64,000 bases of DNA from Candidatus Falkowbacteria bacterium HGW-Falkowbacteria-1 (GTDB lineage: Bacteria > Patescibacteriota > Patescibacteriia > Patescibacteriales > UBA12465), in assembly GCA_002840305.1 (NCBI GenBank), contig PHAI01000002.1:10707-74706 (forward strand). The letters run 5' to 3'. Under the pieces are notes generated by a model. It was not told where the DNA came from. It was given only the letters and a program-made list of their open reading frames with translations, and ran no database searches. The translations under genes were made by a program, and so were the position numbers. Shown piece by piece: positions 19,268 to 34,632 of this stretch (position 1 is its first letter; each line of letters starts with the position of its first letter).

Positions 19268-20623
19268 ATGCCCTTCAAAAAAATAAAGGATAAAAAAAAG
19301 TTGTCGAAAAAAGAAAAAAAAGTAAAGAAGAAGGATGTTAAGAGGAAAGAGACGAAAATTAAAAAAACTAAAAAAGTATTATTAAAAAAAATCCCAAAGT
19401 TTAAAGTTGTAAAAAAAGTTGAAAAAGATAAGTATTCTAAAATTAAACAGAAAAAAGTGAAAAAAGAAGTAATGGCGAAAAAAAAGGTATTGATTAAAAA
19501 AGGTTTAAAAAATAAGCAGGAGGTTTATGAAACAAAAGAAGCTCCGAGTGAAGAACAAATTTTAAAAATAATAGAGAAGGGCAGATCAAGAGGATTTTTA
19601 ACGGAAACAGAGATACTTCATTTATTTCCAAATGTTGAGGATTATATTTACGATTATGAGATTTTTTTAAGCCGTTTAACTGATGTTGGTATTAAGGTGA
19701 GTGAAGACAGTGGCAATATTTTGGGCTTAGGTACGGATATTCAAAAACTCGTTAAGAAGCCGGTTGGCAGCGCTATTGACTTCTCTAGTTTGGCAGCCGA
19801 TTCTATTCAAATGTATTTGAAAGAAATAGGGAAAATACCTCTTTTGACTGGCGAAGAAGAAGTCGATTTGTCAAAAAAGAAAGATAGAGGCGATAAAGAT
19901 GCCGAGAGAAAAATGATAGAATCAAATTTGAAGTTGGTTGTTTCTATCGCTAAAAAGTTTTCCGGCGTCAAGGGTCTTAGTTTGTTGGATTTGATTCAAG
20001 AGGGCAATATTGGTCTTTTTAGAGCCGTGGATAAGTTTGAACATCAAAAGGGTTATAAATTTTCGACCTACGCTACTTGGTGGATTAGACAGGCTATAAC
20101 AAGAGCATTGGCTGATCAGTCTAGAACTATTCGTATCCCAGTTCATATGGTTGAAAATATAAACAAATTTCAACAAGCTCAAAGATTCTTGATTCAAGAG
20201 TTAGGAAGAGAGCCAATGGTTGAAGAAACAGCAGCTGAGCTAGGAGAAGAATTGAGTAAGGTTGTATATATCATGAAGATTTCCCAGGAGACAATTTCAT
20301 TGGAGACAACTATTGGCGATGATGATGATAATTCTACTTTAGAAGACTTTATTGAAGATATTAAAAACGAAACACCAGATAGAGTTGCTGCCTTGCAACT
20401 TCTTAAAGATTATGTTAAGGAAGTTATAATAACACTTTCTCCGCGTGAACAGAAAATTTTGGAAATGAGGTTTGGATTAGTTGACGGTGTAGCTCATACC
20501 TTGGAGGAGGTTGGTCAAGAATTTGAAGTAACAAGAGAAAGAATTAGACAAATCGAAGCTAAGGCTTTAGAAAAAATTAGAAAAATGAAAAGTAAAGGTT
20601 TAGAAAAATTAAGAGATTTTTAA
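19268..20623 (+). CDS. rpoD: RNA polymerase primary sigma factor with a Lys-rich N-terminal extension
   Basis: Region 2 ([37 protein letters not shown]) and region 4 ([24 protein letters not shown]); the dnaG-rpoD order is conserved. Confidence 0.95.
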
Positions 20624-21665: not shown

Positions 21666-21737
21666 TCCGGGGTAGCGCAGCGGTAGCGCAGTTGACTGTT
21701 AATCAATTGGTCGTGGGTTCGAATCCCACCCCCGGAG
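21666..21737 (+). tRNA. tRNA-Asn (anticodon GTT)
   Basis: Cloverleaf folded by hand: acceptor TCCGGGG/CCCCGGA, D stem GCGC/GCGC, anticodon stem GTTGA/TCAAT with loop CTGTTAA, T stem GTGGG/CCCAC with loop TTCGAAT, discriminator G. CCA is not encoded. Confidence 0.9.
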
Positions 21738-21828
21738 CCGCGTAAAATAAAAACAAAAAAGCCACTAAATGTGGCTTGTTTTGTTTTTATCACGCGGCCA
21801 CGTGAACACCGAAGGTGTTTTTACGTGG
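21737..21828 (+). terminator. Two abutting hairpins 3' of tRNA-Asn (the inner one is terminator-like)
   Basis: Hairpin 1 (21737-21798) has an outer clamp GCCGCGT/ACGCGGC and an inner stem GCCAC-TAAAT-GTGGC followed by a T-rich run. Hairpin 2 (21798-21828) pairs CCACGTGAACACC-GAA-GGTGTTTttACGTGG. Confidence 0.55.
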
Positions 21829-21910
21829 ACAAGATAAAAGGTCTATATTCATTAGGTCTTTTTTTATATCCTGGACGGGAATTAGAACTTTTTATTATAC
21901 TGCGCCATTA

Positions 21911-21939
21911 TTGACAAAAGTATACTATTTTAGTATACT
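21911..21939 (+). promoter_or_regulatory. Consensus promoter TTGACA-17-TATACT
   Basis: Hexamers at 21911-21916 and 21934-21939, upstream of ORF 21986. Confidence 0.55.
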
Positions 21940-21985
21940 TTTTTGTTAGTTAAAATTATATTGTTGAACCTTAAAAACTTATATC

Positions 21986-22441
21986 ATGAACAGAAAATAT
22001 TTTTTTGAATTTATTTGGCCAAAGATAATGGGTTCCATTATTATCCTTTTGATTCTTTCCTCCTTCTTTTTCGGTATATTTTTCATTTCACGCTATTCCT
22101 ATGAACAAGAAACTGTAAAGAAAGAGCAAGAGCTCGGTTTTGTAATTAGTAGCTTAAAAGATGGGGAGGTGTTTAGTGTTTCAAGCGCCACTCACATGTA
22201 TCTCGTTGAACGATTAAGAGAACAGGCAACTCGTAGTCAAGGTGACGTCGTGGAGTTAGGATTGTTAACTTATTATGTGAGAGAAATAAGCAGTGGCTAT
22301 ATTCTCTTTTGTTCTTGTGAGCCGGTAAATGATGGTTATTATTTAGAGGTTATTCAAAAATCTATTAAAATCAATCCTGTTGGGCAATATATAGACATGT
22401 TGCTTATCAAAAAAGTTTATGGCCCGTATTACAAAGAATGA
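21986..22441 (+). CDS. Hypothetical membrane-anchored protein (151 aa)
   Basis: ORF with one N-terminal TM helix; no family recognised. It has its own promoter, no SD, and a TGA stop. Confidence 0.5.
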   Translation: MNRKYFFEFIWPKIMGSIIILLILSSFFFGIFFISRYSYEQETVKKEQELGFVISSLKDGEVFSVSSATHMYLVERLREQATRSQGDVVELGLLTYYVREISSGYILFCSCEPVNDGYYLEVIQKSIKINPVGQYIDMLLIKKVYGPYYKE

Positions 22442-22497
22442 AACCACATTGTTGAATTTTAAAAATTGAATACAAATTAAAGATGGGAGGTTGAATC

Positions 22498-22851
22498 ATG
22501 ATTTTATTTATTACACCTAATGTTATTTATAGACGCGGCTTGGTGGTTATAAACGGAGGAATTCAATTAATTGCTCGGTGGTCGCGCGATCGACTCATTA
22601 TTAAGGAAGTGAATGCTATGGCATATGATGGTTTGCATTTTTTCCCCAATGAAGACCCTATTGGAGGAAAGGTTTTGGAATGTCCAATTATTGACTTGAT
22701 ATCCTTGCGGGAAGATGGAACCGGTTGGAATGTTGAAGGCGAAACTGCCGATGGAAAAAAATTTAAGTTCCCGATACATCATGATTTTGTTGAAGGAAAA
22801 AATTACTTAGGAAAAGAGCCAATTTATTTTCCGTTTTGGCCTCATAAGTAG
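22498..22851 (+). CDS. Hypothetical protein (117 aa; alternative internal start at MAYDG)
   Basis: Strong SD GGGAGG 7 nt upstream of the ATG; no family recognised. Confidence 0.5.
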   Translation: MILFITPNVIYRRGLVVINGGIQLIARWSRDRLIIKEVNAMAYDGLHFFPNEDPIGGKVLECPIIDLISLREDGTGWNVEGETADGKKFKFPIHHDFVEGKNYLGKEPIYFPFWPHK

Positions 22852-22981
22852 TTTAACGATTTTTAAATGACACAGACCCTGAAGCTAAAACAGTTTTGGG
22901 GTTTTTTATTTTATACATAGCAAGCCAGAGGGTGGGATAAATCAAACAAGTTTTGACATCTTACAACATGCGGAGCAAGTC

Positions 22982-23011
22982 TTGACAAAAAATATATTAA
23001 TGTGGTATATT
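22982..23011 (+). promoter_or_regulatory. Promoter TTGACA-18-TATATT
   Basis: Hexamers at 22982-22987 and 23006-23011, upstream of ORF 23063. Confidence 0.5.
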
Positions 23012-23062
23012 TTTTTGTCGATCTTTAAAATTAATGTTTCACTAAAAATAGGAGGATAAGCA

Positions 23063-23440
23063 ATGAGTAAACTTAAGCCATTTCACGAATCAATTGTTGA
23101 TGCAATTGATTTATGTCAAGAAAAAGACATTTTTATTTTGTCTTCTATTCTTGTGAACACTAAAATCCCCAAAAATCACAATGTCATTATTGCGGCCTGG
23201 GAAAAGAAAATCGAAGAGCTTTCTTGTCCCGATTATGATGTTGTTGATGCTATTCTCGAACAAAAAAAAGAGGCAGAAGAAAAAAGTGTAGACGTTACCT
23301 TTTTAACCGATGACCCAAAAATTAAATCCCAGCTTATGCAATTGGGGCATTCCTTTTCGCAGGTAGTTGCCGAAAATAATGCTGATTTGGCGGAATCTAT
23401 TCGTCAAGAAGCCCTCATGCTTAAGGGCGAGACAAAATAA
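23063..23440 (+). CDS. Hypothetical acidic protein (125 aa)
   Basis: SD AGGAGG upstream, its own promoter and its own terminator; no family recognised. Confidence 0.55.
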   Translation: MSKLKPFHESIVDAIDLCQEKDIFILSSILVNTKIPKNHNVIIAAWEKKIEELSCPDYDVVDAILEQKKEAEEKSVDVTFLTDDPKIKSQLMQLGHSFSQVVAENNADLAESIRQEALMLKGETK

Positions 23441-23487
23441 GTGGTTGATAGTTTATTTAAGGAGGTCTAACCTCGGACTTTCTTTTC

Positions 23488-23517
23488 ACCGCATCCAAAA
23501 CAGATGCGGTTTTTTTA
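23488..23517 (+). terminator. Rho-independent terminator
   Basis: Stem ACCGCATC/GATGCGGT followed by T7. Confidence 0.7.
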
Positions 23518-23580
23518 TATAACAAGAAACAGTTTTGGATTTTTTTCTTTGTTTTTGTTGATTAATATTAGTTTGAATTT

Positions 23581-23609
23581 TTGCCCCCATTTTTAAATTA
23601 TGTTATAAT
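23581..23609 (+). promoter_or_regulatory. Promoter TTGCCC-17-TGtTATAAT
   Basis: Perfect -10 at 23604-23609 preceded by an extended TG, upstream of ORF 23639. Confidence 0.5.
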
Positions 23610-23638
23610 ATTTTTATTATAAAAGTAATATTATTAAT

Positions 23639-24700
23639 ATGAATCTTGTTTTGTATTTGTTGGCGTTGCTAGCGTCATTTTACTTATTAGCCGTTGTTTG
23701 TGATCGTTATTTCGTTTTTTCCTTGGACAAAATCGCCCTTAAGCTTAATATGAATTCAGATATGGCCGGAGCAACCTTGATGGCGGTTGGTTCAAGCGCC
23801 CCAGAATTATTTGTTTCCTTTATCGCCTTGTTTAAGCCAGGTAACGAAGCCATGGGCGCGGGAACGATTGTTGGTTCAGCGATTTTTAATATTTTAGTAA
23901 TTATTGGCGCCTCGGCCATGGTTCGTAAAGCCTTTATTGCTTGGCAACCAGTAATTAGAGATGTTATTTTTTACTCTCTGTCTATAATTTTACTTATATA
24001 TTCTTTTTGGGACGGAAAGATAGTTCTTTTAGAGTCTATTGCTTTTTTGGCTCTTTACGGTGTTTATATAATTGCTGTTTTACAATGGAGAAAAATTTTG
24101 CCATATAAAGATGATGAAAAAGAGCCGATTGAGGTATTAGAGGAAGGGGAGGACAAAGAGCAAAAAAACAAAAGCGCTCTTGGTAAGTTTTTAAATGGTA
24201 TTAATTTAGTTTTAGATTTTATTTTTCCCAAAGAAGACAAATACTGGTTAGTATTCATTGTATCTATTGCCTCTATCGCTGGTTTAAGTTGGGTTTTAGT
24301 GGAAAGCGCTGTTGGTATTTCTGTTATTCTACATGTCCCCGCCGTTATTATTGGCTTAACTGTTTTGGCTGCTGGTACTAGTATTCCAGATTTAATATCA
24401 TCAATGATAGTGGCTCGTCAGGGCAGAGGTGGGATGGCAATTTCTAATGCCATCGGTTCTAATATTTTTGATATTTTAATTGGGCTTGGATTGCCATGGT
24501 TCATAATAACTGTAGGCGGCAAAGTCATTCCAGTGGTTACAGAAAACCTTAACAGTTCGATTATTTTATTGTTTGCGACCGTCCTTGCAGTTCTTGGCTT
24601 TTTAATGGCTAAAAAATGGCATATCAATAAGTTGGCCGGTATTGGCTTGATTAGTATATACATTGGATATTTGTTGTGGAATATTTTTCAAGTATTGTAA
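23639..24700 (+). CDS. Ca2+/cation antiporter family (CaCA) membrane protein, second copy
   Basis: Alpha-repeats GSSAPELFVS...GTIVGSAIFNILVIIG and GTSIPDLISS...SNAIGSNIFDILIGLG; an acidic central loop. Confidence 0.85.
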   Translation: MNLVLYLLALLASFYLLAVVCDRYFVFSLDKIALKLNMNSDMAGATLMAVGSSAPELFVSFIALFKPGNEAMGAGTIVGSAIFNILVIIGASAMVRKAFIAWQPVIRDVIFYSLSIILLIYSFWDGKIVLLESIAFLALYGVYIIAVLQWRKILPYKDDEKEPIEVLEEGEDKEQKNKSALGKFLNGINLVLDFIFPKEDKYWLVFIVSIASIAGLSWVLVESAVGISVILHVPAVIIGLTVLAAGTSIPDLISSMIVARQGRGGMAISNAIGSNIFDILIGLGLPWFIITVGGKVIPVVTENLNSSIILLFATVLAVLGFLMAKKWHINKLAGIGLISIYIGYLLWNIFQVL

Positions 24701-24808
24701 TTATATTTTTATTTATCAAGACGTTTTTAAATGAAAATAGAACTTGAGAATTTAATTTTTCAATATTAGTCATGCCATTTTCAATTTTATTCACTATTCC
24801 GCGTTCTG

Positions 24809-24837
24809 TTGACAAAAAGTATATCTTATGATATGCT
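24809..24837 (+). promoter_or_regulatory. Consensus promoter TTGACA-17-TATGCT
   Basis: The track's TTG start at 24809 is the first codon of this TTGACA box, so the ORF start was moved to 24884. Confidence 0.55.
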
Positions 24838-24883
24838 TTTTTTGATAGTTAAATTTATTATTGAACCTTTAAAATTAAGTAAC

Positions 24884-25222
24884 ATGAACGAATTAAATTT
24901 ATCTGATAGACCAGATTGGTTTAAAAGCAATAGTTGGTTAGTACAAAACCAAAAAACGTCTTTTGTTCTTAGGTTGAGCAATGTTATTCATCAGCTTCAG
25001 GCAGACAGAGGTATTAAAAAGCCAGACGACGAACCAATGGACGCTACCAGGGGTTGTTTTATGGGGGAAATAGCAGTTGAAGGAACATTGTTCCAGTACA
25101 AGCACATGATAATTGAGTTAAACAAACTGACAGGAGATGATGCTTTGCGAGCCAAAGAGGCAATGGAGAGTTTTGAAAATGATTTTAAGGATTATTTGCC
25201 GTTTTTACGACAAGTAAAATAA
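24884..25222 (+). CDS. Hypothetical protein (112 aa)
   Basis: First ATG downstream of the promoter; no family recognised. A roughly 150-nt 3' region precedes the terminator. Confidence 0.5.
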   Translation: MNELNLSDRPDWFKSNSWLVQNQKTSFVLRLSNVIHQLQADRGIKKPDDEPMDATRGCFMGEIAVEGTLFQYKHMIIELNKLTGDDALRAKEAMESFENDFKDYLPFLRQVK

Positions 25223-25372
25223 AAATTTTGGAAATTATCGCGTCTTTATTTATCCGTAAAATTGCTGGTAGACATTTAGAATACGCCGATGTCCAAAGTC
25301 ACTGTATTCCCAACCGAGGGCCCAAAAGGTACCCGAACGCAATATCGGTTAGAATGTTAAAAGATAATTACA

Positions 25373-25400
25373 AAGGAGGCCAAATGGTTTCCTTTTTTAT
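25373..25400 (+). terminator. Rho-independent terminator
   Basis: Stem AAGGAGGCC/GGTTTCCTT (two G-U pairs) with loop AAAT, then a T-run. Confidence 0.55.
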
Positions 25401-25586
25401 TTTTTAAAGTAATTTTTAGGATTTTTTATAGCATAAAGAGTACTTTTTAAATATTTTCTTACAAGGATTTAGTATTTTAATTTAAATTTTATATTTATCA
25501 AACAAGTTATTTTTTGGTATAATAAAATTGTAACTGAATATTAAATTTATAAAAAATGCCATAGTTTTTTATATTAATAAAAATAT

Positions 25587-26303
25587 ATGACCATAGGTTT
25601 TAGCGACGGAGTTTTACATAATTTATTTAATCAAGAGAGCGATAGACATAAAGCTGGTTATTTAAAGTATATTAACTTTAATGCCGTAGAGCTGCATTGT
25701 ATAAATGAGAGCTTAATGGATGAAATGATTAACAATTTAGACAATAAACTGTATTCTGAGTTTTTATATATTTCTTTGCATGCCCCCGCTTTTTCGTGGA
25801 ACAACGATAAAAATATCTCATTGTTAAAAAAAATAAGATTGATTTTTGTTAAATTTAATATAAAAAATGTCGTAATTCATCCTGACGAAATAAAGGATTG
25901 GAGTATATTTGAAAAATTCAAAGATTTACCATTGTCATTGGAAAATATGGACAGAGATAAAAAAGCATATAAAAACATAAAGAGTTTAAAAGAAATAATC
26001 AACAAATATGGTTTTATGTTGACATTGGATTTGAATCATTGTTACGACAACGACGAAACAATGATTTTAGCCGAAGACTTTCAAGATGAATTCAAAGATA
26101 AAATTGTTGAATATCATATTAGCGGTTATGATAAAGAAAAAAAACATACGACTTTGTTTGACAAAAGTGAGCAGATAAGAATTATAAACTCTATAAAATT
26201 TAAGAATATCCCGATAATTATTGAAAGTTGTTTTAATAAAGCTTATGACGTTAAAAAAGAATATAAATATATAGAGGACTGTTTACGGACTAGATTGACA
26301 TAA
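25587..26303 (+). CDS. Xylose-isomerase-like TIM-barrel protein (sugar-phosphate isomerase/epimerase or AP-endonuclease-2 family)
   Basis: Spaced motifs VELH, SLHAP, VVIHP, LENM, LDLNH, YHISG and IIIES resemble the AP_endonuc_2/TIM-barrel pattern. The gene is very AT-rich, unlike its neighbours. Confidence 0.55.
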   Translation: MTIGFSDGVLHNLFNQESDRHKAGYLKYINFNAVELHCINESLMDEMINNLDNKLYSEFLYISLHAPAFSWNNDKNISLLKKIRLIFVKFNIKNVVIHPDEIKDWSIFEKFKDLPLSLENMDRDKKAYKNIKSLKEIINKYGFMLTLDLNHCYDNDETMILAEDFQDEFKDKIVEYHISGYDKEKKHTTLFDKSEQIRIINSIKFKNIPIIIESCFNKAYDVKKEYKYIEDCLRTRLT

Positions 26304-26324
26304 ATATATTCTAGTGTTATATTT
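26296..26324 (+). promoter_or_regulatory. Consensus promoter TTGACA-17-TATATT
   Basis: The -35 box overlaps the last codons of ORF 25587-26303; it lies upstream of ORF 26369. Confidence 0.55.
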
Positions 26325-26368
26325 TCGTATTACATTAACAATTTGTTTAACTAAAAGGAGGCTTAATA

Positions 26369-26890
26369 ATGATTAATTTAGATGAAAGAAGGCTGGATAT
26401 AATATCTGTTGCCACAAAAGCTTTTGAGATAATTACTAGAATACCAAACGATGTTCGTAAGGACGACAAAGAACGTACGGGAATACAGGTGTTAGTTCGT
26501 CAGCCAGGCACGAGAAATTTAGTTTTTGTTTCAATTAAAGAGCCGTCAGAGGCCGCTAAATTTTTTTCTGCAGAAAAAGCTGTAAGATCTGATCTTCGTT
26601 TTGAAATGACCTCACAAGAGAGTGAGGACCCAAAAAAACTGCAATTCCCCGGAAGTGTTATGATCGAAGTGGAGGATGGACATTTTTTGCAGGCTTCGAT
26701 ATCTGGCTTACAATCAGAGGAAGATGTCGCCGTAGCTATTGCGATTCTGTCATCGCTTTTGTCAACTATTCCGTCGGATTTATGCGAAAGAATAAGGGCA
26801 CAAGGGGGAGAGCTCCCCAGTTGTTTTGAAGAAGAAGGCCATTATTTATATGAGAAAGAAATTAACTCCTTAGTTTGGCCTTTTATGTAG
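26369..26890 (+). CDS. Hypothetical protein, possibly GlcG/HbpS-like (DUF336)
   Basis: SD AAGGAGG upstream. AEKAVRS and PGSVMIEVEDGHFLQASISGLQSEEDVAVAIA resemble the GlcG pattern (KArtA ... GG.Pv.vdG..iGAvGVSG...qD..vA). The match is weak and from memory. Confidence 0.45.
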   Translation: MINLDERRLDIISVATKAFEIITRIPNDVRKDDKERTGIQVLVRQPGTRNLVFVSIKEPSEAAKFFSAEKAVRSDLRFEMTSQESEDPKKLQFPGSVMIEVEDGHFLQASISGLQSEEDVAVAIAILSSLLSTIPSDLCERIRAQGGELPSCFEEEGHYLYEKEINSLVWPFM

Positions 26891-26905
26891 CACGCATAAA
26901 AACTT

Positions 26906-26935
26906 ATCCCGTCTAGTTAAAGACGGGATTTTTTA
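26906..26935 (+). terminator. Rho-independent terminator
   Basis: Stem ATCCCGTCT/AGACGGGAT with loop AGTTAA, then T6. Confidence 0.75.
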
Positions 26936-26976: not shown

Positions 26977-28725
26977 ATGTCTATATTACTTCAAGTAAAA
27001 GATTTGAAAAAAGAATATAGTGGTCAGATTATCTTTTCTGGCCTGTCTTTTGCTGTATCCGAAAAACAAAAAATAGGAGTAGTTGGTGTAAATGGGGCAG
27101 GGAAATCAACTTTGTTTCGTATTATTAGCGGAGAAGAAAGTTCTGACTCCGGTGAAATGATAATAAATAAAAAAGCAGATATTGGATACTTAAAACAAAA
27201 AGATGATTGGTTTGAAGATGAGAGCGGATTGGAATATTTAATTAGACAAGCAGATTGTCCCGATTGGCAGGCCAAAAAAATGGCTAGTCGCTTTGAACTA
27301 GACGATAAAAAGCTTTCTCTTTTGGCCAAAGAACTATCTGGGGGATGGCGTATTCGCTTGCGTCTTTGCGGCATGTTGATTAAAGGGCCAAATCTTCTTT
27401 TGCTTGATGAACCAAGTAATTATCTTGACTTGAATACTCTTATTTTGTTGGAAAACTATTTAAATTCATATAATGGAAGTTTTTTAATTATTTCTCATGA
27501 TCGCGAATTTTTAAAAAATGTTTGTAGTGAAACAATAGAAATTTCGAAAAATGGTTGTTATTATTATCCTGGTAATATAGATAATTATCTTACTTTCAAA
27601 AAACAAAAATTGGCCACGACTATAAAAGCTAATAAAAATCTTGAGAAACAACAAGAACATTGGCAAGAGTTCGTTGATCGTTTTCGCTACAAAGATTCAA
27701 AAGCTAAACAGGCGCAGGCTCTTATTAAAAAAATTGCAAAGATAGAAAAAAATCGTGTCATTATTGAGCGTAAGGCGAGTATAAGTAGAATAATTATTCC
27801 AGCAATTAAAAATAAGAAAAACTTTTCCTTGAGAATAGACAATCTTAGTATTGGTTATAAGGGGAAGAAAATTGTTTCGAATATAGATTTTATTTGTCGT
27901 TTTGGTGAAAAATTAGCTATATTGGGTTTAAATGGCCAGGGCAAAACAACTCTAATTAGAACCCTTGCGGGTTGCTTGGAGGTAGTAGAGGGGTCATTCC
28001 AATTTGCTAGAAATAGTTCAGTGGCTTATCATGGGCAAGAGGAAATGGAACTCATGAATGATCGTGAACAGGCTGGAGATTTTTTGCGTCGTCTTGCTTC
28101 ACCGGATATTAAGTTGGAAAGTATTTTAAAGATGGCTGGAGATTTTTTATTTAAAGAAGAAGAGTTAAAGAAACCAATATCTGTTTTATCTGGTGGTGAA
28201 AAATCGCGCTTGCTTCTCGCTGGTTTATTATTATCAAGACCAAGTATATTGATTTTAGACGAACCAACTTGCCACCTTGATTTCGAAACAACGGAGGCCC
28301 TGGGACAGGCTCTCAAAAAGTGGGATGGAATGGTGCTTTTTGCCAGTCATGATAGGGCCTTTTCAAAGTTAGTGTCGACTGGCATTATTGAAATAAAAGA
28401 TAAAAAAGCCAAACGTTTGCATAATGATTATGATGATTATGTCAACAAATTGAAAAAAGACCTTATTAAAAAAACATCAGAAGAAAAAAACAATGGAAAT
28501 TTTTCTGAAAAGAAACATAATTATCTTGAAAATAAATTAAAGAAAAAAGAAATTAGTTTACTTGAGAAAAAAATAATAAAAATGGAGGAACGCAAAAAGG
28601 AATTAATAACTTATTTTCTTAAAAATTATAGCAATTATGATTTAGACAAAGTTAAGGAATTAGAAGAGCTTGAAAAAAGCTTGAAAGAGAAGGAGGATCT
28701 TTGGCTAGCTTTGAACGAGGACTAA
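26977..28725 (+). CDS. ABC-F family ATPase (two ABC domains, no TM segments, C-terminal coiled coil)
   Basis: Walker A GVNGAGKST and GLNGQGKTT; signatures LSGGWRIRL and LSGGEKSRL; Walker B LLLLDEP and ILILDEP. Confidence 0.9.
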   Translation: MSILLQVKDLKKEYSGQIIFSGLSFAVSEKQKIGVVGVNGAGKSTLFRIISGEESSDSGEMIINKKADIGYLKQKDDWFEDESGLEYLIRQADCPDWQAKKMASRFELDDKKLSLLAKELSGGWRIRLRLCGMLIKGPNLLLLDEPSNYLDLNTLILLENYLNSYNGSFLIISHDREFLKNVCSETIEISKNGCYYYPGNIDNYLTFKKQKLATTIKANKNLEKQQEHWQEFVDRFRYKDSKAKQAQALIKKIAKIEKNRVIIERKASISRIIIPAIKNKKNFSLRIDNLSIGYKGKKIVSNIDFICRFGEKLAILGLNGQGKTTLIRTLAGCLEVVEGSFQFARNSSVAYHGQEEMELMNDREQAGDFLRRLASPDIKLESILKMAGDFLFKEEELKKPISVLSGGEKSRLLLAGLLLSRPSILILDEPTCHLDFETTEALGQALKKWDGMVLFASHDRAFSKLVSTGIIEIKDKKAKRLHNDYDDYVNKLKKDLIKKTSEEKNNGNFSEKKHNYLENKLKKKEISLLEKKIIKMEERKKELITYFLKNYSNYDLDKVKELEELEKSLKEKEDLWLALNED

Positions 28726-28773
28726 AAGGGAGGGGGCGTTGATTTGATGTAATATTTTTTCTTATATTAATAT

Positions 28774-29754
28774 ATGAATATTTTTTACCCAATACAATTA
28801 TTAGCAGATTTAATTAGTTATGGTTTAATAGGGCTAGTCGAAAAGTCTTATTTGGGCAGTGCTGTCAATTTTTTTGTTTATGACACAATAAAGATTGGCC
28901 TTCTTTTGTTGTTTATTAATTATTTAATGGCGGTAACTAGATTTTATTTTCCAATGGAAAGAGCCAAAAACATTTTGACTAAAAAACGTTGGTTCGGTTT
29001 GAATTATTTAATAGCGGCTCTTTTAGGAGTGGTTACTCCTTTTTGTTCTTGCTCCTCTATTCCTTTGTTTATTGGTTTTATGGGGGCGGGAATACCCTTG
29101 GGAATAACTTTTGCCTTTTTAATTAGTTCGCCTCTTATCAATGAAGCATCTTTATATCTTTTTCCGGCAATGTTTGGGATAAAGGTTGCAATTTTGTACA
29201 ATTTGTTTGGGTTAACAATAGCCGTTCTTGGCGGTATGTTAATTCAAAAATTAAAATTGGAGAAATATATAATGCCGGAGCTTTTGAAATTTAAATCGCG
29301 CGCTCAAGTGGAAGCAGAAAATAACAATTCTAAGTTATCATTTAAAAAACTTGTGACTTACTTTTGGAAAGACGGGATGAATATTACTAAACAGATTTTT
29401 CCGTATGTAGTTTTGGGCGTCGGCATTGGCGCTATTATTCATGGTTTTGTGCCGAGTAATTTGATCGAATATTATTTATCTGCCAAATCTTGGTGGACCG
29501 TCCCAATGGCCGTTATCTTAGGTGTGCCGCTTTACGCCAATTCTATAAGCGTACTTCCGATAATGGAGGCTTTAGTAGGAAAGGGAGCGCCGTTGGGCAC
29601 AATTTTAGCTTTTATGACAGCGATTGTAACCTTGTCGCTGCCCGAGGCTTTAATTCTTAAAAAAGTAATGCGTTGGCCATTGTTGGTAGTATTTTTTAGT
29701 ATTACTATAGTTGGGATTTTGATTATGGGATATTTATTTAATATTATTTTGTAA
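28774..29754 (+). CDS. Predicted permease (UPF0718/ArsP-like)
   Basis: About 8 TM segments with a VTPFCSCSSIPLF motif typical of this permease family. Confidence 0.7.
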   Translation: MNIFYPIQLLADLISYGLIGLVEKSYLGSAVNFFVYDTIKIGLLLLFINYLMAVTRFYFPMERAKNILTKKRWFGLNYLIAALLGVVTPFCSCSSIPLFIGFMGAGIPLGITFAFLISSPLINEASLYLFPAMFGIKVAILYNLFGLTIAVLGGMLIQKLKLEKYIMPELLKFKSRAQVEAENNNSKLSFKKLVTYFWKDGMNITKQIFPYVVLGVGIGAIIHGFVPSNLIEYYLSAKSWWTVPMAVILGVPLYANSISVLPIMEALVGKGAPLGTILAFMTAIVTLSLPEALILKKVMRWPLLVVFFSITIVGILIMGYLFNIIL

Positions 29755-29794
29755 AATAAAAATAAATTTAAATATAATTTTTTTCTAAAATAAC

Positions 29795-29828
29795 AAAACC
29801 GCCTCTAAAAAGAAGCGGTTTTGTTTTA
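29795..29828. terminator. Bidirectional terminator between convergent genes
   Basis: Stem AACCGC/GCGGTT flanked by an A-run and a T-run. Confidence 0.6.
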
Positions 29829-29858
29829 TCTAAATTTTGAGTTTAAATTTAATTTAAA

Positions 29859-30953
29859 TTATTTACTTACTACGATTATATTTTTTTCTATTTCTTTGAT
29901 AGTTTCATGATAGCCAGTAGGGTAATCTCGAATAGCATTATAGAGTATTGTTTTATCATAGTAATATGACTCACCATTTCTTGTTCCTGGGTCGTTGGTA
30001 ATAAATTCTTCTGTTGTTGGATCGAAACCACGAATAACCATCATGTGTTGACCTGGCCCGGGAGGTCTGTAATTGGGATTGTGCACTATCTGTCCATTCA
30101 TAGGGGCCAGAACTAAATGGCCCTTGGATAGTTCTTCTACTATATCATTTATAGTTACATCTTTTTTTAAAACCACTTGGTCGTATTGAAAATAATCTTT
30201 AAAAATCCAATCAAGAGTATCTTGGGCTGATGTGTCACGTGATTCTCCGTATTTTTTTTTGAGCCAATCAGAGATACCAGTAATTTCTTTCAAAGACTCT
30301 TCCTTGCTTAAACTTTTTTCTTGAACCCATTTCATCGCCATTAAAGCTGATGATTCCTCACAACCATTTTGTTGACGCGAATCAGACCAGTCACCAAAGG
30401 GGGCTTGTGTGGTGAAGGGTACGTCGTTGATTAATATTTTTTCATTAGCCTTGGGCAGTGTCATTGATTTTGCCATTGGTTCTCCTGTTATACCAACTGG
30501 AATACGAGCTAAATCTGAATTTGTTATGCCTCGACCTAGTTCGCGCATAATCTTGAAAGCATCTTCTGGCCTTCCTAGGTAATATTTTTTTCTGTCTCCA
30601 GGATAAATATAATAAGCTTCGCCATTTTTTTCTACATCTAAGAGAATCGTGCCTGACAGTCTCTCGGGGAAAACATTTGTATCAATAATAAAGTTATGTT
30701 TGGCTCCAAGTGCTAATTCTTTCATGATTTTAAAAGCGTCATAGGGACGACCAAGATAGTATGCCTTGTTATTTGCTGGATAAATATACCAAGCCTCGCC
30801 CTTGCTTTCTACCTGTAACAGAATGTAACCAGTGGTTTCTCCTGAGTATGTCACCCCTTTAACAGTTGGCAATCCAAGCGAAATTATGGCTACCAAACTA
30901 AAAACTAGAATAATTGCTTTATATTTTAATTTTGTTCTTGTTAATGGTTTCAT
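29859..30953 (-). CDS. Secreted C39-like cysteine peptidase-domain protein (YvpB-like) with two N-terminal repeats
   Basis: N-terminal TM/signal segment; tandem repeat GxILLxVExxGEAxYIYPxxxKxYYLGRPxDAFKIMxELxxG (two copies); C-terminal VPFTTQAPFGDWSDSRQQNGCEESS is typical of peptidase_C39-like domains. Confidence 0.7.
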   Translation of the reverse strand: MKPLTRTKLKYKAIILVFSLVAIISLGLPTVKGVTYSGETTGYILLQVESKGEAWYIYPANNKAYYLGRPYDAFKIMKELALGAKHNFIIDTNVFPERLSGTILLDVEKNGEAYYIYPGDRKKYYLGRPEDAFKIMRELGRGITNSDLARIPVGITGEPMAKSMTLPKANEKILINDVPFTTQAPFGDWSDSRQQNGCEESSALMAMKWVQEKSLSKEESLKEITGISDWLKKKYGESRDTSAQDTLDWIFKDYFQYDQVVLKKDVTINDIVEELSKGHLVLAPMNGQIVHNPNYRPPGPGQHMMVIRGFDPTTEEFITNDPGTRNGESYYYDKTILYNAIRDYPTGYHETIKEIEKNIIVVSK

Positions 30954-31072
30954 ATAGAAGTATTATACTTAAATACTAATAATAAATCAATTTTTTTTGA
31001 AATTCTTTGCTTATTGTTTCTAATCCCTTAAAGATGTATAATAGATATTAGATAAATTTTAATTACTAATTT

Positions 31073-31399
31073 ATGGATAACATCGAAGAAATTTGCTCTA
31101 TTTGTCATCAGCCCGTTTTGACTGAATTCTATTTTTGTCCGAATTGTGGCAACAACTTAAGAGAAAGACCAAAGCCAATTTCTATTCTGACTCAAATCGG
31201 TCTTTATATTTTGGCTATTTTTTTGCCACCATTAGGTTTGTGGCCAGGCATTAAATATTTGGCCAAAAAAGGCAAACAGGCGAAGTGGGTGGGCTCAATA
31301 ACAATTGTTTTAACCCTAATATCTTCAGTTATAGTAACCTGGTCAATTTTTAACCTTTTTAATAGTTATTTAAGTCAGTTGGAGGGAGTATTATACTAG
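31073..31399 (+). CDS. Zinc-ribbon membrane protein
   Basis: CSICHQ...CPNCG zinc ribbon followed by two TM helices. Confidence 0.6.
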   Translation: MDNIEEICSICHQPVLTEFYFCPNCGNNLRERPKPISILTQIGLYILAIFLPPLGLWPGIKYLAKKGKQAKWVGSITIVLTLISSVIVTWSIFNLFNSYLSQLEGVLY

Positions 31400-31540
31400 C
31401 GTTATCTGATATTTTAGAATAGAAGTATTATAAGAAAAATGTAAAAGCTTCATTGTTGATGGGGCTTTTGTTATATCTTTGATATATGATATAATATTAT
31501 TAATAAAGTTAAATATTGATTTATATTTAAATTAAAAATT

Positions 31541-33355: not shown

Positions 33356-33372
33356 TAATAAAATAAAAAAGT

Positions 33373-33996
33373 ATGAAAAAATTGTTTACTTGCAAAAGCT
33401 TGATTTTAGTAGCTTTAGTTGCCTGTGTTTTAATATTTTTTTTGTTTTTAATTAGGGGAGACGAAGATACTTGGATTTGTAAAGACGGACGATGGATAGA
33501 GCATGGGCATCCGAGCTCTTCGATGCCCAGTATTGCTTGTATTAATAAAGAAGAAATTAATAATTTTGAAGAATGTGTTTCTGCTGGTAATGCTGTAATG
33601 GAAAGTTATCCTAGACAATGCCGGTCAGATGAAAAAACATTTGTTGAAAATATTGGCAACGAATTAGAAAAAAATGATTTGATACGGGTAGAAAATCCTC
33701 GTCCTAATCAGTTTATAGAGAATCAGCTTTTAATTAAAGGGGAAGCAAGAGGCACTTGGTATTTTGAGGCAAGTTTTCCAATATTTCTTTATGATAATAA
33801 TGGCAAGGAAATTGCAATATCTATTGCTCAGGCAAAAAGTGATTGGATGACAGAAAATTTTGTTTCTTTTGAGGCAGTTTTGGAATTTTCTACACCAGAA
33901 ACAAACAATGGATTTTTAATTTTTAAAAAAGATAACCCTTCCGGCCTATCCGAGTATGACGACGAATTAAAAATTCCAGTAAAATTTTCAAAATAG
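33373..33996 (+). CDS. Membrane-anchored protein with a Gmad2-type Ig-like domain
   Basis: N-terminal TM helix; the C-terminal VENPRPNQFIENQLLIKGEARGTWYFEASFPIFLYDNNGKEI...FVSFEAVLEF fits the Gmad2 pattern. Confidence 0.6.
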   Translation: MKKLFTCKSLILVALVACVLIFFLFLIRGDEDTWICKDGRWIEHGHPSSSMPSIACINKEEINNFEECVSAGNAVMESYPRQCRSDEKTFVENIGNELEKNDLIRVENPRPNQFIENQLLIKGEARGTWYFEASFPIFLYDNNGKEIAISIAQAKSDWMTENFVSFEAVLEFSTPETNNGFLIFKKDNPSGLSEYDDELKIPVKFSK

Positions 33997-34116
33997 TAAT
34001 TATTAGAATAAAGACTTTAGATTATATCGTTAAAAATATAAACTAGAAGTATAATAATATGAAAATAGTCATTATTTTGAGCGATAACTTAAATAAAATT
34101 ATTTAAAAACAAAAGA

Positions 34117-34548
34117 ATGGATTACAAAATAAGAAAATTACAAAAAAATGACTTAAAAGGAGTGTCGTTCTTTGAAACACTGTCGAGCTTGAGACCGGTT
34201 GAGGATTTGTCATTTTCTTTGTCTGAGAGTATTTTTTCTGATTGTCAAAAAAGAGGAATTGAAATTTATGTAGCCGAAAGTGAGGGCTTGATCGTTGGTA
34301 CGATTAGATTAATGTTTGAACCAAAATTTTATCATCATGGCAAATTGGTCGCGCATATTGAAGATGTCTCTACTCATGAAAAATATCAGGGCAAGGGAGT
34401 GGCCCGCTCATTGATTGATTATGCCATTTCTTTATGTAAAGAAAAAAAATGTTATAAAATAATTTTAGATTGCGATAGTCAATTGGTAGAGTTTTATAAA
34501 AAGTTTGGATTTCAGCTTGATAGTAACTGTATGCGAATAAATTTATAA
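34117..34548 (+). CDS. GNAT-family N-acetyltransferase (GNA1-like)
   Basis: The acetyl-CoA motif HIEDVSTHEKYQGKGVARSLIDYA and the C-terminal FYKKFGF. Confidence 0.85.
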   Translation: MDYKIRKLQKNDLKGVSFFETLSSLRPVEDLSFSLSESIFSDCQKRGIEIYVAESEGLIVGTIRLMFEPKFYHHGKLVAHIEDVSTHEKYQGKGVARSLIDYAISLCKEKKCYKIILDCDSQLVEFYKKFGFQLDSNCMRINL

Positions 34549-34602
34549 AGTAAAAGCGTATTTTTTATTGTGTTTTTTTTGAAGTTTTTGGTGTAAAAAC
34601 TA

Positions 34603-34632
34603 AAAAAGACTTTCATTTTGAAAGTCTTTTGT
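34603..34632. terminator. Bidirectional terminator
   Basis: Stem AGACTTTC/GAAAGTCT flanked by an A-run and a T-run, between convergent genes. Confidence 0.65.

Follow-up and report, generated by a model that had tools for sequence, protein, structure and literature searches.

A conserved promoter-hairpin-leader module precedes small genes 3' of tRNA-Asn in a probable Falkowbacteria plasticity zone

Directly 3' of tRNA-Asn in the uncultured CPR bacterium Candidatus Falkowbacteria HGW-Falkowbacteria-1 lie five short ORFs (o21986, o22498, o23063, o24884 and o26369), and the four predicted promoters found before them are all copies of one conserved module of ~100 nt. The 64 kb of this genome that we analysed is called the window here. 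Our best reading of the islet is that it represents the tRNA-proximal part of a long-standing Falkowbacteria plasticity zone between tRNA-Asn and greA, and we consider it likely to be an array of insulated small-gene cassettes that has long been in place and keeps shuffling, not a recent foreign island. Its expression units hold one or two genes, and four of them start with a module copy.

The interval between tRNA-Asn and greA

Gene order is shared with relatives from SecY through DnaG-RpoD-DUF5671 up to tRNA-Asn, whose placement downstream of RpoD-DUF5671 is kept in them. Synteny breaks at this tRNA, which bounds the variable zone on the left, and restarts at greA, the conserved right-hand flank of the zone.

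21666-21739, + strand: tRNA-Asn (GTT), by ARAGORN and Rfam (74 bits); own predicted promoter TTGACA-17-TATTAT at 21608
21747-21790, + strand: tRNA-Asn terminator hairpin, AAAAAAGCCAC-TAAAT-GTGGCTTGTTTTG, by terminator scan (scan position 21759); RNA fold -26.5 kcal/mol, z = -6.2
26977-43102, unstranded: remaining variable zone, by Pfam and comparison with relatives
43575-44075, - strand: greA; homologues also border the zone of L006 (64% identity) and of DCZ15 (44%)

The interval measures ~21.8 kb here; that of the closest relative is 2.2 kb long, and another relative has ~24 kb. In the relatives that share the gene order from SecY to tRNA-Asn, the islet genes were not found behind this tRNA. 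Among the closest relatives, L006 carries two unrelated membrane proteins at the same spot, and restriction-modification islands with large serine recombinases occupy it in L004, L007 and L017. L047 has an island of 7.3 kb there, with a tyrosine integrase and with 20 nt of the tRNA-Asn 3' end as a direct repeat. Of 35 related contigs, 11 break off no more than 700 nt past this tRNA-Asn. Given these other islands and contig ends, the 3' flank of tRNA-Asn really is a hotspot of integration and variability, as an earlier note on this DNA had supposed, and the islet is accessory. That note had drawn the islet as a segment of 21738-26935; the genes do lie there, but the variable zone reaches ~43.1 kb, not 26.9 kb. 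Homology to L006 restarts at window positions 43185-46720 (greA and aspS), and the genes of 26977-43102 (ABC-F, an ArsP-like permease, a C39-like peptidase, a pilin-like protein, Gmad2, GNAT, an ABC ATPase, DUF3160, PGA_cap and others) were not found in the first ~9 kb past tRNA-Asn of L004-L007. The model search described below found no module copy in 26977-43102.

The earlier note had left open whether this accessory module was horizontally acquired or fast-evolving. Recent horizontal acquisition is not demonstrated, since neither a recombinase nor a repeat of the tRNA-Asn end was found in the 64-kb window. In DCZ15, another Falkowbacteria genome, the corresponding zone (tRNA-Asn to greA) holds at least 13 modules (model matches at E <= 0.01) and, differently ordered, homologues of o22498 (71% identity), o26369 (49%) and o21986 (43%); at its end a CaCA gene adjoins greA. 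Because that zone shares three of the five families, we favour an old and fast-evolving islet over a newly imported one.

One module in four copies

As the earlier note had stated, a consensus promoter precedes all of the short ORFs except o22498: perfect matches to TTGACA-N17/18-TAnnnT are found at 21911, 22982, 24809 and 26295, 60-75 nt upstream of each ATG. The pattern occurs 13 times in the 64 kb on both strands, with 5 of the 13 in 21.6-26.3 kb, including the tRNA's own site at 21608. A model built from copies outside the window matches it at 21894, 22968, 24796 and 26292, and no further site was found in the 64 kb at E < 10.

21894-21985, + strand: module copy 1, class A (E = 3e-18, non-window model)
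22968-23062, + strand: module copy 2, class B (E = 4e-6, same model)
24796-24883, + strand: module copy 3, class A (E = 4.5e-15, same model)
26292-26368, + strand: module copy 4, class B, degenerate (E = 0.01, same model)

The module opens with a consensus sigma-70 -35 box (TTGACA) and an A-run, followed by an AT-rich hairpin of 11-14 bp that occupies the spacer, has the -10 box as its 3' arm and is followed by six or seven T. The third part is a short leader, TTGTTGAACnTTAAAA without Shine-Dalgarno in class A and TTTGTTTnACTAAAA followed by AGGAGG in class B; the cargo ORF starts 5-12 nt past it and has its own terminator at its end. In 41 aligned copies TTGACAA, the T-run and GAAC.TT are invariant, and 444 of 492 stem cells (90%) are Watson-Crick, with several pair types per position; G.T is seen 23 times vs 8 for A.C (p = 0.011). 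G-C pairs are scarce in the hairpin. Folds range from -12 to -16 kcal/mol (z = -4 to -5.5), with copy 4 as the exception. The earlier note did not mention that the four promoters form one module.

Copy 1 has its -35 box at 21911-21916, its -10 box at 21934-21939, a spacer hairpin at ~21913-21947 (-14 kcal/mol, z = -4.9) and the leader motif ATTGTTGAACCTTAAAA at 21960-21976, without Shine-Dalgarno; it is 90% identical to the L098 module, behind which lies an unrelated ORF. The corresponding boxes of copy 2 (22982-22987 and 23006-23011) are accompanied by a spacer hairpin of -12.2 kcal/mol (z = -5.2), and its leader, ..AATGTTTCACTAAAAATAGGAGG, comes with a Shine-Dalgarno at 23050-23055, while copy 3 (24809-24814 and 24832-24837) combines a hairpin of -16.1 kcal/mol (z = -5.5) with the leader TTATTGAACCTTTAAAA. 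The -35 box of copy 4 (26295-26300) overlaps the stop codon of the preceding gene; its -10 box lies at 26318-26323, its leader is ..CAATTTGTTTAACTAAAAGGAGG with a Shine-Dalgarno at 26356-26361, and no stable hairpin was found in it (-2.7 kcal/mol, z = +0.6). This copy resembles the class-B copies of L211, L214 and L215.

The module is not confined to this locus. Our metagenome sample came from a pattern scan, which makes all module counts lower bounds, and it contains at least 45 module-driven ORFs in at least 41 clusters; elsewhere, in related genomes, at least 39 unrelated small ORFs follow a module, 38 of these 39 being without a Pfam match, and some modules sit between ordinary operons (L028, L182). 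In L004-L007, the four closest relatives, the 5.5-8.9 kb that follow tRNA-Asn yielded no module. Similarity between modules is 69% within a locus vs 72% between loci; sharing a locus does not make copies more similar, and there has been no recent local duplication.

In phage T7 the gene-10 leader, as in pET vectors, reads TTGTTTAACTTTAAG, and TTGTTGAACTTTAAA of the module leader is identical to it at 13 of 15 positions. Leaders of both classes resemble this T7 leader, which holds the epsilon translational enhancer, UUAACUUUAA (PMC9590205). We propose that the hairpin and T-run would stop transcription arriving from the tRNA or an upstream unit, that the promoter overlapping the hairpin would restart it strongly and that the leader would drive efficient translation; each small gene would be expressed whatever its position.

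tRNA ends upstream of modules

At least six modules adjoin real tRNAs (four Asn, two Gln). Of 78 listed modules, 34 have a GAG[CT] in the 12 nt before TTGACA, vs 50 of 1153 other TTGACA sites (p = 3e-22), a statistic based on a model that includes upstream columns; the tRNA-like box is absent from about half of the modules. In the window a single such box scored, and it lies in the islet.

22938-22978, + strand: degenerate tRNA-3'-end-like box, ..GGGTGGGATAAATC..GCGGAGC aagtc, by a profile built from the stretches upstream of modules

Individually weak (E = 0.37), this is the best non-tRNA match to that profile in the window, and it falls exactly at the module boundary, directly 5' of the promoter at 22982; the stretches before 21911 and 24809 gave no score with the profile. 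Because many modules lie directly 3' of a real or degenerate tRNA-Asn or tRNA-Gln end, the most likely history would be one in which site-specific integration and deletion recurred at the tRNA 3' end, leaving old tRNA ends joined to the neighbouring module. This process is demonstrably active in relatives. Behind the attR remnant in L047 stands a module copy; behind that in L211 stands a terminator and, after it, an ordinary TTGACA promoter. Derived features peculiar to the tRNA-like boxes, for example GTTCGAAC..CGTCC, are common to them, and boxes that were co-propagated with the module, or that serve as a binding site, would fit this as well as independent att scars. Recombination at the locus would gain, lose and re-order units.

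Cargo, interleaved genes and composition

21986-22441, + strand: o21986, 151 aa
22446-22497, + strand: inter-cistronic spacer, with leader motif ATTGTTGAATTTTAAAA at 22448-22464 and a GGGAGG Shine-Dalgarno
22498-22851, + strand: o22498, 117 aa
22874-22912, + strand: terminator of unit 1, 13-pair hairpin and T-run
23063-23440, + strand: o23063, 125 aa, predicted cytosolic
23488-23517, + strand: terminator of unit 2, hairpin and T-run (terminator scan)
23639-24700, + strand: second CaCA (Na+/Ca2+ exchanger) gene, Pfam Na_Ca_ex (1e-57)
24884-25222, + strand: o24884, 112 aa
25372-25405, + strand: terminator of unit 3, preceded by 150 nt of 3' untranslated sequence (terminator scan)
25587-26303, + strand: AT-rich TIM-barrel-like gene, 238 aa, GC 0.269
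26369-26890, + strand: o26369, 173 aa
26906-26935, + strand: terminator of unit 4 and right end of the noted islet, hairpin and T-run (terminator scan)
47825-48440, + strand: sixth gene in the same style, ORF 47913-48389, 158 aa

The four terminator-like hairpins (from 22874, 23488, 25372 and 26906) bear out the observation that most of the ORFs have their own terminator. None of the five ORFs matched Pfam or NCBIfam at curated thresholds or gave a significant match to PHROG or PADLOC, and no housekeeping family was found, in line with the earlier failure to place them. The label 'orphan' holds for o24884, which found only itself among 5.8 billion proteins and on these searches is the sole true orphan, but not for the other four, which have homologues; the start codon of o24884 is fixed by its register with the module.

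The protein o21986 is predicted to be small and extracytoplasmic, with a signal anchor or a signal of lipoprotein type at its N-terminus; its homologues (12 representative clusters) include several with an L-x-S-C lipobox-like motif and a module-driven one in L103 (51% identity); its AlphaFold model (pLDDT 84) matched no PDB fold. The promoter scan found no promoter-like site directly upstream of o22498, which is probably co-transcribed with o21986. Its four homologues (71-76% identity) are all Falkowbacteria-type, and the one in DCZ15 has its own complete class-B module. For o23063, L049 has a module-driven homologue (40% identity), situated 0.8 kb downstream of tRNA-Asn. For o26369, the suspected GlcG/DUF336 resemblance reappears as an 18.6-bit match to HbpS/DUF336 in Pfam (cut-off 25), and comparison of its AlphaFold model (pLDDT 88) with the PDB (best match EfgA 6bws, E = 8e-4, TM 0.52/0.65) confirms it at the level of the predicted fold as a divergent DUF336/GlcG/HbpS/EfgA-fold protein. 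At least 50 homologues (42-56% identity) were found, module-driven in L020, L214, L215 and L217 within unrelated neighbourhoods.

Both genes described as interleaved are there. By promoter scan, the CaCA gene has the promoter TTGCCC-17-TATAAT at 23581 and no module copy. The AT-rich gene (predicted promoter at 25495) has weak TIM-barrel-type matches (CbiR, MbnB) and aligns over its full length with PADLOC PDC-M70B (4.6e-32), a candidate phage-defence component to which it is homologous. The sixth gene does show the style claimed for it, with a predicted TTGACA-17-TATACT promoter at 47825 and a hairpin terminator past the stop; it gave no match to the module model at E < 10 and thus falls outside the module family. 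The cargo consists of small, fast-evolving, mostly family-less genes, from the secreted or lipoprotein-like o21986 and the DUF336/GlcG-fold o26369 to the PDC-M70B-like candidate defence protein and pure orphans, and our best guess is that their roles lie in strain-specific surface, host-interaction or defence functions.

The islet ORFs had also been judged richer in G/C, with the string CGCGATCGACTC (located at 22585-22596) as an example. This excess does exist but is slight: mean GC is 0.370 in the six 'orphans' vs 0.330 in the remaining 65 genes (Mann-Whitney p = 0.003), and mean GC3 is 0.338 vs 0.279 (p = 9e-5), with all values inside the core-gene range. Codon bias did not differ between the 'orphans' and other small genes (p = 0.59). 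On composition, synteny and housekeeping homology, the points that the earlier note had named as able to speak against it, the results all came out in its favour. In 1-kb windows, GC is 0.31-0.36 in the islet vs 0.26-0.39 across the window.

Small genes downstream of tRNA-Asn

The run of small genes 3' of tRNA-Asn (21738-26935, the islet) is probably part of a long-standing plasticity zone, in which insulated expression units share a terminator-promoter-leader module. The earlier note had read the islet as self-contained orphan genes beside a tRNA, a reading that is correct in essentials, with four refinements; the key feature beyond it is an expression module, conserved and linked to tRNA 3' ends. 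The elements concerned lie in the window as follows, with ORFs named by their starts and a unit taken as a module, its ORF or ORFs and a terminator.

21666-21739, tRNA-Asn(GTT), the sole tRNA gene of the window
21759, terminator-like hairpin with T-run after the tRNA
21911, perfect TTGACA-N17/18-TAnnnT promoter, module class A
21986, start of o21986 (unit 1)
22498, start of o22498 (unit 1), with no such promoter
22874, terminator-like hairpin with T-run
22982, perfect promoter of the same form, module class B
23063, start of o23063 (unit 2)
23488, terminator-like hairpin with T-run
23639-24700, CaCA exchanger gene (Na_Ca_ex, 1e-57)
24809, perfect promoter of the same form, module class A
24884, start of o24884 (unit 3)
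25372, terminator-like hairpin with T-run
25587-26303, AT-rich gene (238 aa, GC 0.269), weak TIM-barrel-type matches (CbiR, MbnB)
26295, perfect promoter of the same form, module class B
26369, start of o26369 (unit 4; CVU82_01695, 173 aa)
26906, terminator-like hairpin with T-run

All five ORFs previously listed downstream of the tRNA are present, and the two genes said to be interleaved with them, a second CaCA antiporter copy and a very AT-rich TIM-barrel gene, were likewise recovered; the window's other CaCA gene (11100-12062) sits in a conserved block. Consensus promoters had been noted before every ORF except o22498, and own terminators behind most, and both were located, in a 64-kb stretch that holds 13 TTGACA-N17/18-TAnnnT sites in total on its two strands. 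Units 2, 3 and 4 each have their own promoter and terminator around a single ORF, and unit 1 contains two ORFs. A sixth gene of similar style had been placed at 47913; its promoter at 47825 is indeed alike in style, but it does not belong to the module family described below. This promoter and one at 35240(-) are further TTGACAAAAA-type promoters in the window. An Rfam search of the entire window, repeated with permissive E-values for 21.5-27.2 kb, returned the tRNA alone, with no partial tRNAs, known leaders or sRNAs.

As had been judged by eye, the islet genes are richer in GC: the five ORFs and the gene at 47913 stand at 0.370 vs 0.330 for the other 65 window genes (p = 0.003), with GC3 at 0.338 vs 0.279 (p = 9e-5). 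The shift is significant but small (~4 points), the values lie inside the core range, and the codon bias is that of other small genes. The claim that the five ORFs could not be placed in families holds up, with none reaching curated Pfam/NCBIfam thresholds and none giving a significant PHROG or PADLOC match; among these ORFs and the TIM-like neighbor, PADLOC matched the neighbor alone. The label "orphan" is true of o24884, for which no homologues were found, but not of the other four: o26369 has at least 50 homologues (42-56% identity), o21986 has them in 12 representative clusters, o22498 has four at 71-76% identity, and o23063 has one, at 40% identity, in the related locus L049. The o21986 protein carries a signal anchor or lipobox, and a fold search against the PDB gave no match for it (best E = 0.07, TM ~0.25).

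The weak GlcG/DUF336-like resemblance recorded for o26369 is borne out by its predicted fold (AlphaFold pLDDT 88, pTM 0.87), the 19 top Foldseek matches all being DUF336-type structures. EfgA is the best of these (6bws, E = 8e-4, TM 0.52/0.65), and the fold also matches ORFY DUF336 (2a2l), Ybr137w, NahX, HbpS and PduOC. By sequence, o26369 gives a weak match to PF03928 over residues 71-127 (18.6 bits, under the gathering threshold of 25), and a profile of 34 homologues found nothing below E = 0.3 among PDB chains. The fold is thus common to o26369 and the DUF336/GlcG/HbpS/EfgA/PduO-C family (PF03928), although o26369 is ~30-40 residues longer and only 22% identical to EfgA. The AT-rich neighbor at 25587 aligns along its entire length with PDC-M70B, a candidate defence protein of PADLOC (4.6e-32), and no PDC-M70A partner was recognized among its neighbors. 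Between the o24884 stop and its terminator lies an unusually long (~150 nt) and relatively GC-rich 3' untranslated stretch (25223-25405), which is overlapped by a 59-aa TTG-start ORF (25228-25407).

A shared promoter, hairpin and leader

The promoters and 5' UTRs of o21986 and o24884 are alike across ~75 nt, and this upstream sequence recurs in distant Falkowbacteria loci before unrelated small ORFs. Scanning metagenome contigs by profile and pattern, we found ~45 strong copies among the matches listed of a ~100-nt module made up of a promoter, a spacer hairpin and a leader. The class-A consensus, drawn from 41 unique aligned copies among the matches listed, reads TTGACAAAAA-GTATAC-TTATG-GTATACTTTTTTGATAGTTAAAAT-nn-TATTGTTGAACnTTAAAAATT-N5-8-ATG and has no Shine-Dalgarno sequence; in class B, the leader end is swapped for ..AATTTGTTTnACTAAAA(A)TAGGAGG-N-ATG. 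We found no description of this module, and a search for papers that mention Falkowbacteria together with promoters gave nothing relevant. A search model built from non-window copies alone matched the window at 21894 (E = 3e-18), 24796 (4.5e-15), 22968 (4e-6) and 26292 (0.01), with no further match at E < 10 on either strand; these are exactly the four promoters singled out earlier, all within 4.7 kb after the tRNA.

The distance from module to ATG is fixed, which favors starts at 21986 and 24884. The public gene calls instead begin o21986 at Met15 (22028) and o24884 inside its own promoter (24833). We rejected an origin of the repeated promoters by local tandem duplication because module copies within a locus are no more similar to each other (69%) than copies from different loci (72%).

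Within the module, the spacer between -35 and -10 forms a hairpin of 11-14 bp, its 5' arm comprising the A-run after TTGACA and the GTATAC-like bases and its 3' arm the -10 hexamer and a T-run (T6-7) that is always present. The stem is AT-rich, with merely 2-3 G-C pairs. Across 41 copies and 12 stem positions among the matches listed, 444 of 492 stem cells are Watson-Crick paired, with A-T, T-A, G-C and C-G all occurring at inner positions in different copies, and there are 23 G.T mismatches vs eight of A.C (p = 0.011, under scoring without G.U preference). Three window copies give fold energies of -12 to -16 kcal/mol (z = -4 to -5.5), and the copy at 26292 has lost its hairpin. Because pairing is kept while the sequence varies, and because a T-run always follows, these comparisons fit a structure acting as a single strand, which most simply would terminate incoming transcription; a protein operator fits less well. 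A regulon has nevertheless to be weighed, in which the spacer dyad would be the operator of a dimeric repressor and an upstream GTTCGAAC-like box an activator site, with the small genes co-regulated and no implication for mobility or termination. The dyad does overlap the -35 to -10 region, the classic repressor position, it is conserved across genomes, and many copies carry a palindromic GTTCGAAC in the upstream box. Yet the paired arms read GTATAC/GTATAC, GCGTAC/GTATGC, GAATATC/GGTATTC or ATAGCA/TGCTAT, a variation unexpected for a sequence recognized by protein, the excess of G.T over A.C points to a single-strand structure, the T-run is constant and the box position can be occupied by real tRNA ends, leaving such a regulon quite improbable.

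Module leaders and the leader of T7 gene 10, which from its use in pET vectors we take to be TTGTTTAACTTTAAG, both lie immediately ahead of the start codon within a short 5' UTR. The leader of class A, TTGTTGAACTTTAAA, agrees with this T7 sequence at 13/15 positions, a similarity between short AT-rich strings, and the class-B leader ATTTGTTTCACTAAAAAATAGGAGG parallels T7 ATTTTGTTTAACTTTAAGAAGGAG, downstream Shine-Dalgarno included. Class A departs from the T7 leader in lacking a Shine-Dalgarno altogether, whereas class B keeps AGGAGG. The T7 gene-10 leader holds the epsilon translational enhancer UUAACUUUAA (PMC9590205). Leader copies in the window read GAACCTTAA, agreeing with the epsilon core at 7/9 positions, and the GAAC(U/C/A)UUAA seen across module copies agrees with it at 7-8/9. 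The module leader may be one that enhances translation, and an epsilon-like mechanism would imply 16S rRNA complementarity to UUGAACNUUAAAA and UUUGUUUNACUAAAA.

Highly similar upstream sequences before non-homologous genes, both inside one genome and across genomes, have been described as putative mobile promoters, for which 80% or more identity across 50 nt or more is required, with promoter-bearing repeats such as Correia elements listed as related cases (Matus-Garcia, Nijveen and van Passel 2012; PMC3575422). The module falls within this operational definition: window positions 21908-21998 are 90% identical to the module of contig L098, and 24806-24896 are 80% identical to those of L191, L115 and L049, with unrelated ORFs downstream in each case. 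It is unlike putative mobile promoters in its defined anatomy (spacer hairpin, leader motif and tRNA-like box), its fixed start-codon register and its strong tie to tRNA 3' flanks and family-less small ORFs, and it has no MITE-type terminal inverted repeats or target-site duplications.

Among the matches listed, the module drives at least 45 distinct ORFs of 35-311 aa, falling into 41 clusters; 38 of the 39 that are 50 aa or longer have no Pfam match, and many carry a hydrophobic segment at the N-terminus. The CPR (Patescibacteria) are mostly uncultured and have small genomes rich in unannotated genes, and to our knowledge almost nothing is known of their expression signals or modes of diversification. 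The module provides a portable expression signal, combining a consensus promoter, an embedded terminator-like hairpin and an epsilon-like leader, that is directly testable. It also serves as a sequence tag for fast-evolving, family-less small proteins, which make good candidates for functions specific to strains of episymbionts, at the surface, in host interaction or in defence.

The variable zone between tRNA-Asn and greA

Comparison with relatives, which the earlier note had proposed as a check, drew on 80 loci anchored on RpoD. The order SecY, DnaG-RpoD-DUF5671, tRNA-Asn is kept in the nearer relatives and breaks after the tRNA. In the 21 loci with at least 2 kb downstream of tRNA-Asn, the islet genes are absent after the tRNA, single homologues in L020 and L049 excepted. 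The closest relative, L006 (DnaG 70% identical), has two unrelated membrane proteins after the tRNA and then greA and aspS, the pair that lies at 43.2-46.7 kb in the window. A zone of variability starting at the tRNA is confirmed, but it runs to ~43.1 kb, with greA as its conserved right flank, and is four times longer than the islet as drawn. Elsewhere, the same flank carries restriction-modification genes and large serine recombinases (L004, L007 and L017), a C5-methylase and a MutH-like gene (L005) or, in L047, an island of 7.3 kb that is bounded by the tRNA and by 20 nt repeating the tRNA 3' end exactly, and that holds a gene for a tyrosine integrase (Phage_integrase, 1.6e-31) along with DpnI- and DpnII-type genes. 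Furthermore, 11 of 35 related contigs (within L003-L082) end no more than 700 nt after tRNA-Asn, and several within 50 nt. Contig breaks at one site are the usual sign of strain heterogeneity in metagenome assemblies, which suggests that these assemblies break after tRNA-Asn as strains differ immediately downstream. Because synteny ends at the tRNA, relatives carry recombinase islands there and contigs break there, the tRNA-Asn flank is a genuine integration and variability hotspot, and the tRNA-Asn-to-greA interval is a bounded hypervariable zone in which integration, deletion and unit shuffling are traceable across strains.

Another Falkowbacteria genome, DCZ15 (GCA_003489845; contigs L211 and L218), has an equivalent zone. 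A remnant of an L047-type island ends in AATCCGACCCCGGGAGC and is followed by ~24 kb with at least 13 module matches (E <= 0.01), all but one on one strand, most of them preceded by a tRNA-like box and many in units of just 0.5-0.9 kb; the zone ends at a CaCA gene (L218:17956-18912) and greA. It contains homologues of o22498 (71% identity), o26369 (49%) and o21986 (43%), in an order that differs from the window's. Because families are shared in a different order and same-locus module copies are not more alike, the array is old, fixed in place and re-ordered unit by unit, being neither a recent import nor a recent local duplication.

The earlier suggestion of a horizontally acquired or fast-evolving accessory module at a tRNA 3' hotspot accordingly stands for the hotspot and for accessory content, but not for recent acquisition. 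A single element that integrated at the tRNA-Asn 3' end, later lost its integrase and brought in the style and GC of its donor is unlikely. In its favor, integration at this locus is proven in relatives, siblings lack the region at the same place, the islet genes are slightly GC-richer, and the PDC-M70B-like candidate defence gene would be typical island cargo. The array also lies immediately 3' of a tRNA, with degenerate tRNA-3'-like sequences between its units, as in tRNA-linked islands and tandem accretion, and in siblings the same tRNA is occupied by islands with an integrase or recombinase, L047 also having the tRNA end as a direct repeat. The window itself, however, differs from classical tRNA-integrated islands: no Phage_integrase, Resolvase or Recombinase domain was found in its called genes from 16.4 to 36.9 kb or in the extra ORFs scanned, no second copy of the tRNA 3' end occurs in 64 kb with up to three mismatches allowed, and short-word blastn of the tRNA flank for att repeats gave noise alone. 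Units are single small genes of 0.5-1.8 kb, composition is nearly native, with a GC shift of merely ~4 points and native-like codon bias, three of the five families lie re-ordered in the DCZ15 zone, the promoters are a clade-wide native module, and similarity to phages, plasmids and viral contigs is absent. For a phage or plasmid origin, which we rejected, PHROG gave no matches, the eight pattern matches on viral contigs are not module copies, the class-B pattern had no viral match, plasmids had none, and phages gave only a marginal 40-nt match, to Streptococcus prophages.

The opposite possibility, that these are ordinary lineage-specific hypothetical genes with strong promoters and a coincidental place beside a tRNA, is very improbable. 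CPR genomes do have many unannotated small genes, and TTGACAAAAA-type promoters occur elsewhere in the window, at the two sites already named. On the other hand, all four module matches in 64 kb lie within 4.7 kb after the tRNA, synteny breaks exactly at the islet, and a Pfam match is lacking in nearly all cargo ORFs. The RpoD-anchored loci (1.17 Mb), moreover, contain 15 modules, the majority of them in the first 3 kb after tRNA-Asn, a density that by a rough count is ~12 times the locus-wide average.

Several further observations concern the elements at this site. L047:11906-19290 and L211:3816-6310 represent a tyrosine-integrase island family that targets tRNA-Asn and carries DpnI/DpnII-type restriction-modification genes; common to these islands is a conserved ~180-nt attR arm in which TTGTGACGCTATTGTG motifs recur, probably as arm-type sites for the integrase. 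In L211 the arm is present a second time as a partial copy (178 nt, 95% identical), suggesting a nested or tandem insertion. The large serine recombinases beside or near tRNA-Asn (L017:12136-13761, L004:7289-8611 and L007:10384-11739; Resolvase, Recombinase, Zn_ribbon_recom), accompanied by type III or N6/N4 methylase restriction genes, are a second, unrelated element class using the flank. At the right edge of the variable zone, a conserved 116-aa gene (43185-43535 in the window, L006:15039-15389 in the closest relative) differs between the two in strand and in the side of greA on which it sits, a small local inversion or transposition. To the left of the tRNA, the window RpoD (19268-20623) has a lysine-rich N-terminal extension of ~90 residues that is poorly kept in relatives, whose alignments to it begin near residue 57-93.

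tRNA 3' ends and the question of mobile units

The tie between module and tRNA extends to their junctions. Six modules begin 1-5 nt past a real tRNA, four of them tRNA-Asn and two tRNA-Gln, and many others are preceded in the same register by a box resembling a degenerate tRNA 3' half (..GGTTCGAA..CC..CCGAGC). GAG[CT] stands no more than 12 nt 5' of TTGACA in 34 of 78 modules vs 50 of 1153 other TTGACA sites (p = 3e-22), with the caveat that the model collecting those 78 modules itself includes upstream columns. In the window, the best non-tRNA match to a box profile (22938-22978, E = 0.37) lies directly before the promoter at 22982; ahead of 21911 and 24809 the sequence has degenerated too far to give a score. 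The displaced tRNA-Asn end (attR) of L047 has a module copy immediately behind it; behind the attR remnant of L211 come first a terminator and next an ordinary TTGACA promoter. These arrangements imply that a tRNA with a self-contained small gene was the state before insertion. A further case, L214:3796-3912, has tRNA-Gln with a module-like promoter 2 nt later, indicating that the tRNA-module junction is not specific to tRNA-Asn.

Within the plasticity-zone reading, units may turn over through recombination at tRNA 3' ends. A stricter version would make the units mobile cassettes, the box and hairpin forming a recombination site at which units are excised as circles and reinserted at tRNA 3' ends or at one another by a recombinase acting in trans, in an integron-like or pdif-like manner with an own promoter per cassette. 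A conserved repeat does separate unrelated small ORFs in one orientation and in units of 0.5-1 kb, both in L211 and in the window, and the boxes stand in fixed register with real tRNA ends. The o26369 family occurs as a box-module-ORF unit in five genomes, module-driven in L020, L214, L215 and L217 with wholly different neighbor genes each time; the window and DCZ15 have their shared units in different orders; and the hairpin tolerates G.T but not A.C, as expected of a folded single strand. Several points make us doubt strict cassettes nonetheless. No dedicated recombinase is linked to the arrays, an identical unit was never caught at two sites, and neither repeat-bounded presence/absence polymorphism nor circular junctions were seen, the near-identical contigs L211, L212, L213 and L137 showing no presence/absence differences of units. 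By inspection, attC signatures are absent from the module consensus, which lacks R''/R' core sites (RYYYAAC ... GTTRRRY) in the right arrangement; half of the modules have no box, and each conserved element is already explained as an expression signal. For a Xer/dif-like reading of the hairpin, also considered, the loop of 3-5 nt is short against a Xer central region of 6-8 bp, except when inner pairs of the stem are added to it. That Falkowbacteria, and perhaps other CPR, hold an undescribed gene-cassette system, in which trans-acting recombinases capture, excise and shuffle self-expressing cassettes at tRNA-Asn/tRNA-Gln 3' ends with the tRNA-3'-like box and/or hairpin as the recombination site, is thus a minor possibility. 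Were it true, it would be an integron analogue with every cassette self-expressing, providing organisms of tiny genome size with a pool of fast-evolving small surface, host-interaction or defence proteins, and genes would have a new path by which to spread within a major bacterial radiation.

The array does share its layout with Vibrio superintegrons (VCR), having small, mostly uncharacterised ORFs in one orientation and a partly palindromic ~100-nt repeat, and, like chromosomal integrons generally, it varies in content at a fixed position. Integron cassettes are mostly promoterless and carry attC at their 3' end, unlike the module, which is an expression signal 5' of each ORF, and no IntI, attI or tyrosine recombinase was found in the window ORFs scanned. 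Closer in gene anatomy are phage morons, which according to Hendrix and colleagues are reportedly autonomous promoter-ORF-terminator units inserted between phage genes. The islet units resemble them as self-contained transcription units with a sigma-70 promoter and an intrinsic terminator, slightly off their surroundings in composition and with small cargo of accessory or unassigned role. They are unlike morons in lying on a bacterial chromosome and not in a prophage, with no phage genes nearby and the module found on no viral contig, and in having one conserved promoter-leader module common to the units, which morons do not. Overall, then, they resemble morons in gene anatomy, mobile promoters in upstream reuse, tRNA islands in location and chromosomal integrons in layout; they fail the defining features of a classical island, integron or moron and fall under the mobile promoter definition.

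The non-coding ~100 nt that separate the tRNA terminator from the first module (21791-21893) include a nested hairpin (CCACGTGAACACCGAAGGTGTTTTTACGTGG) and a T-run and have no Rfam match; they may be what is left of a lost unit, or else a small RNA.
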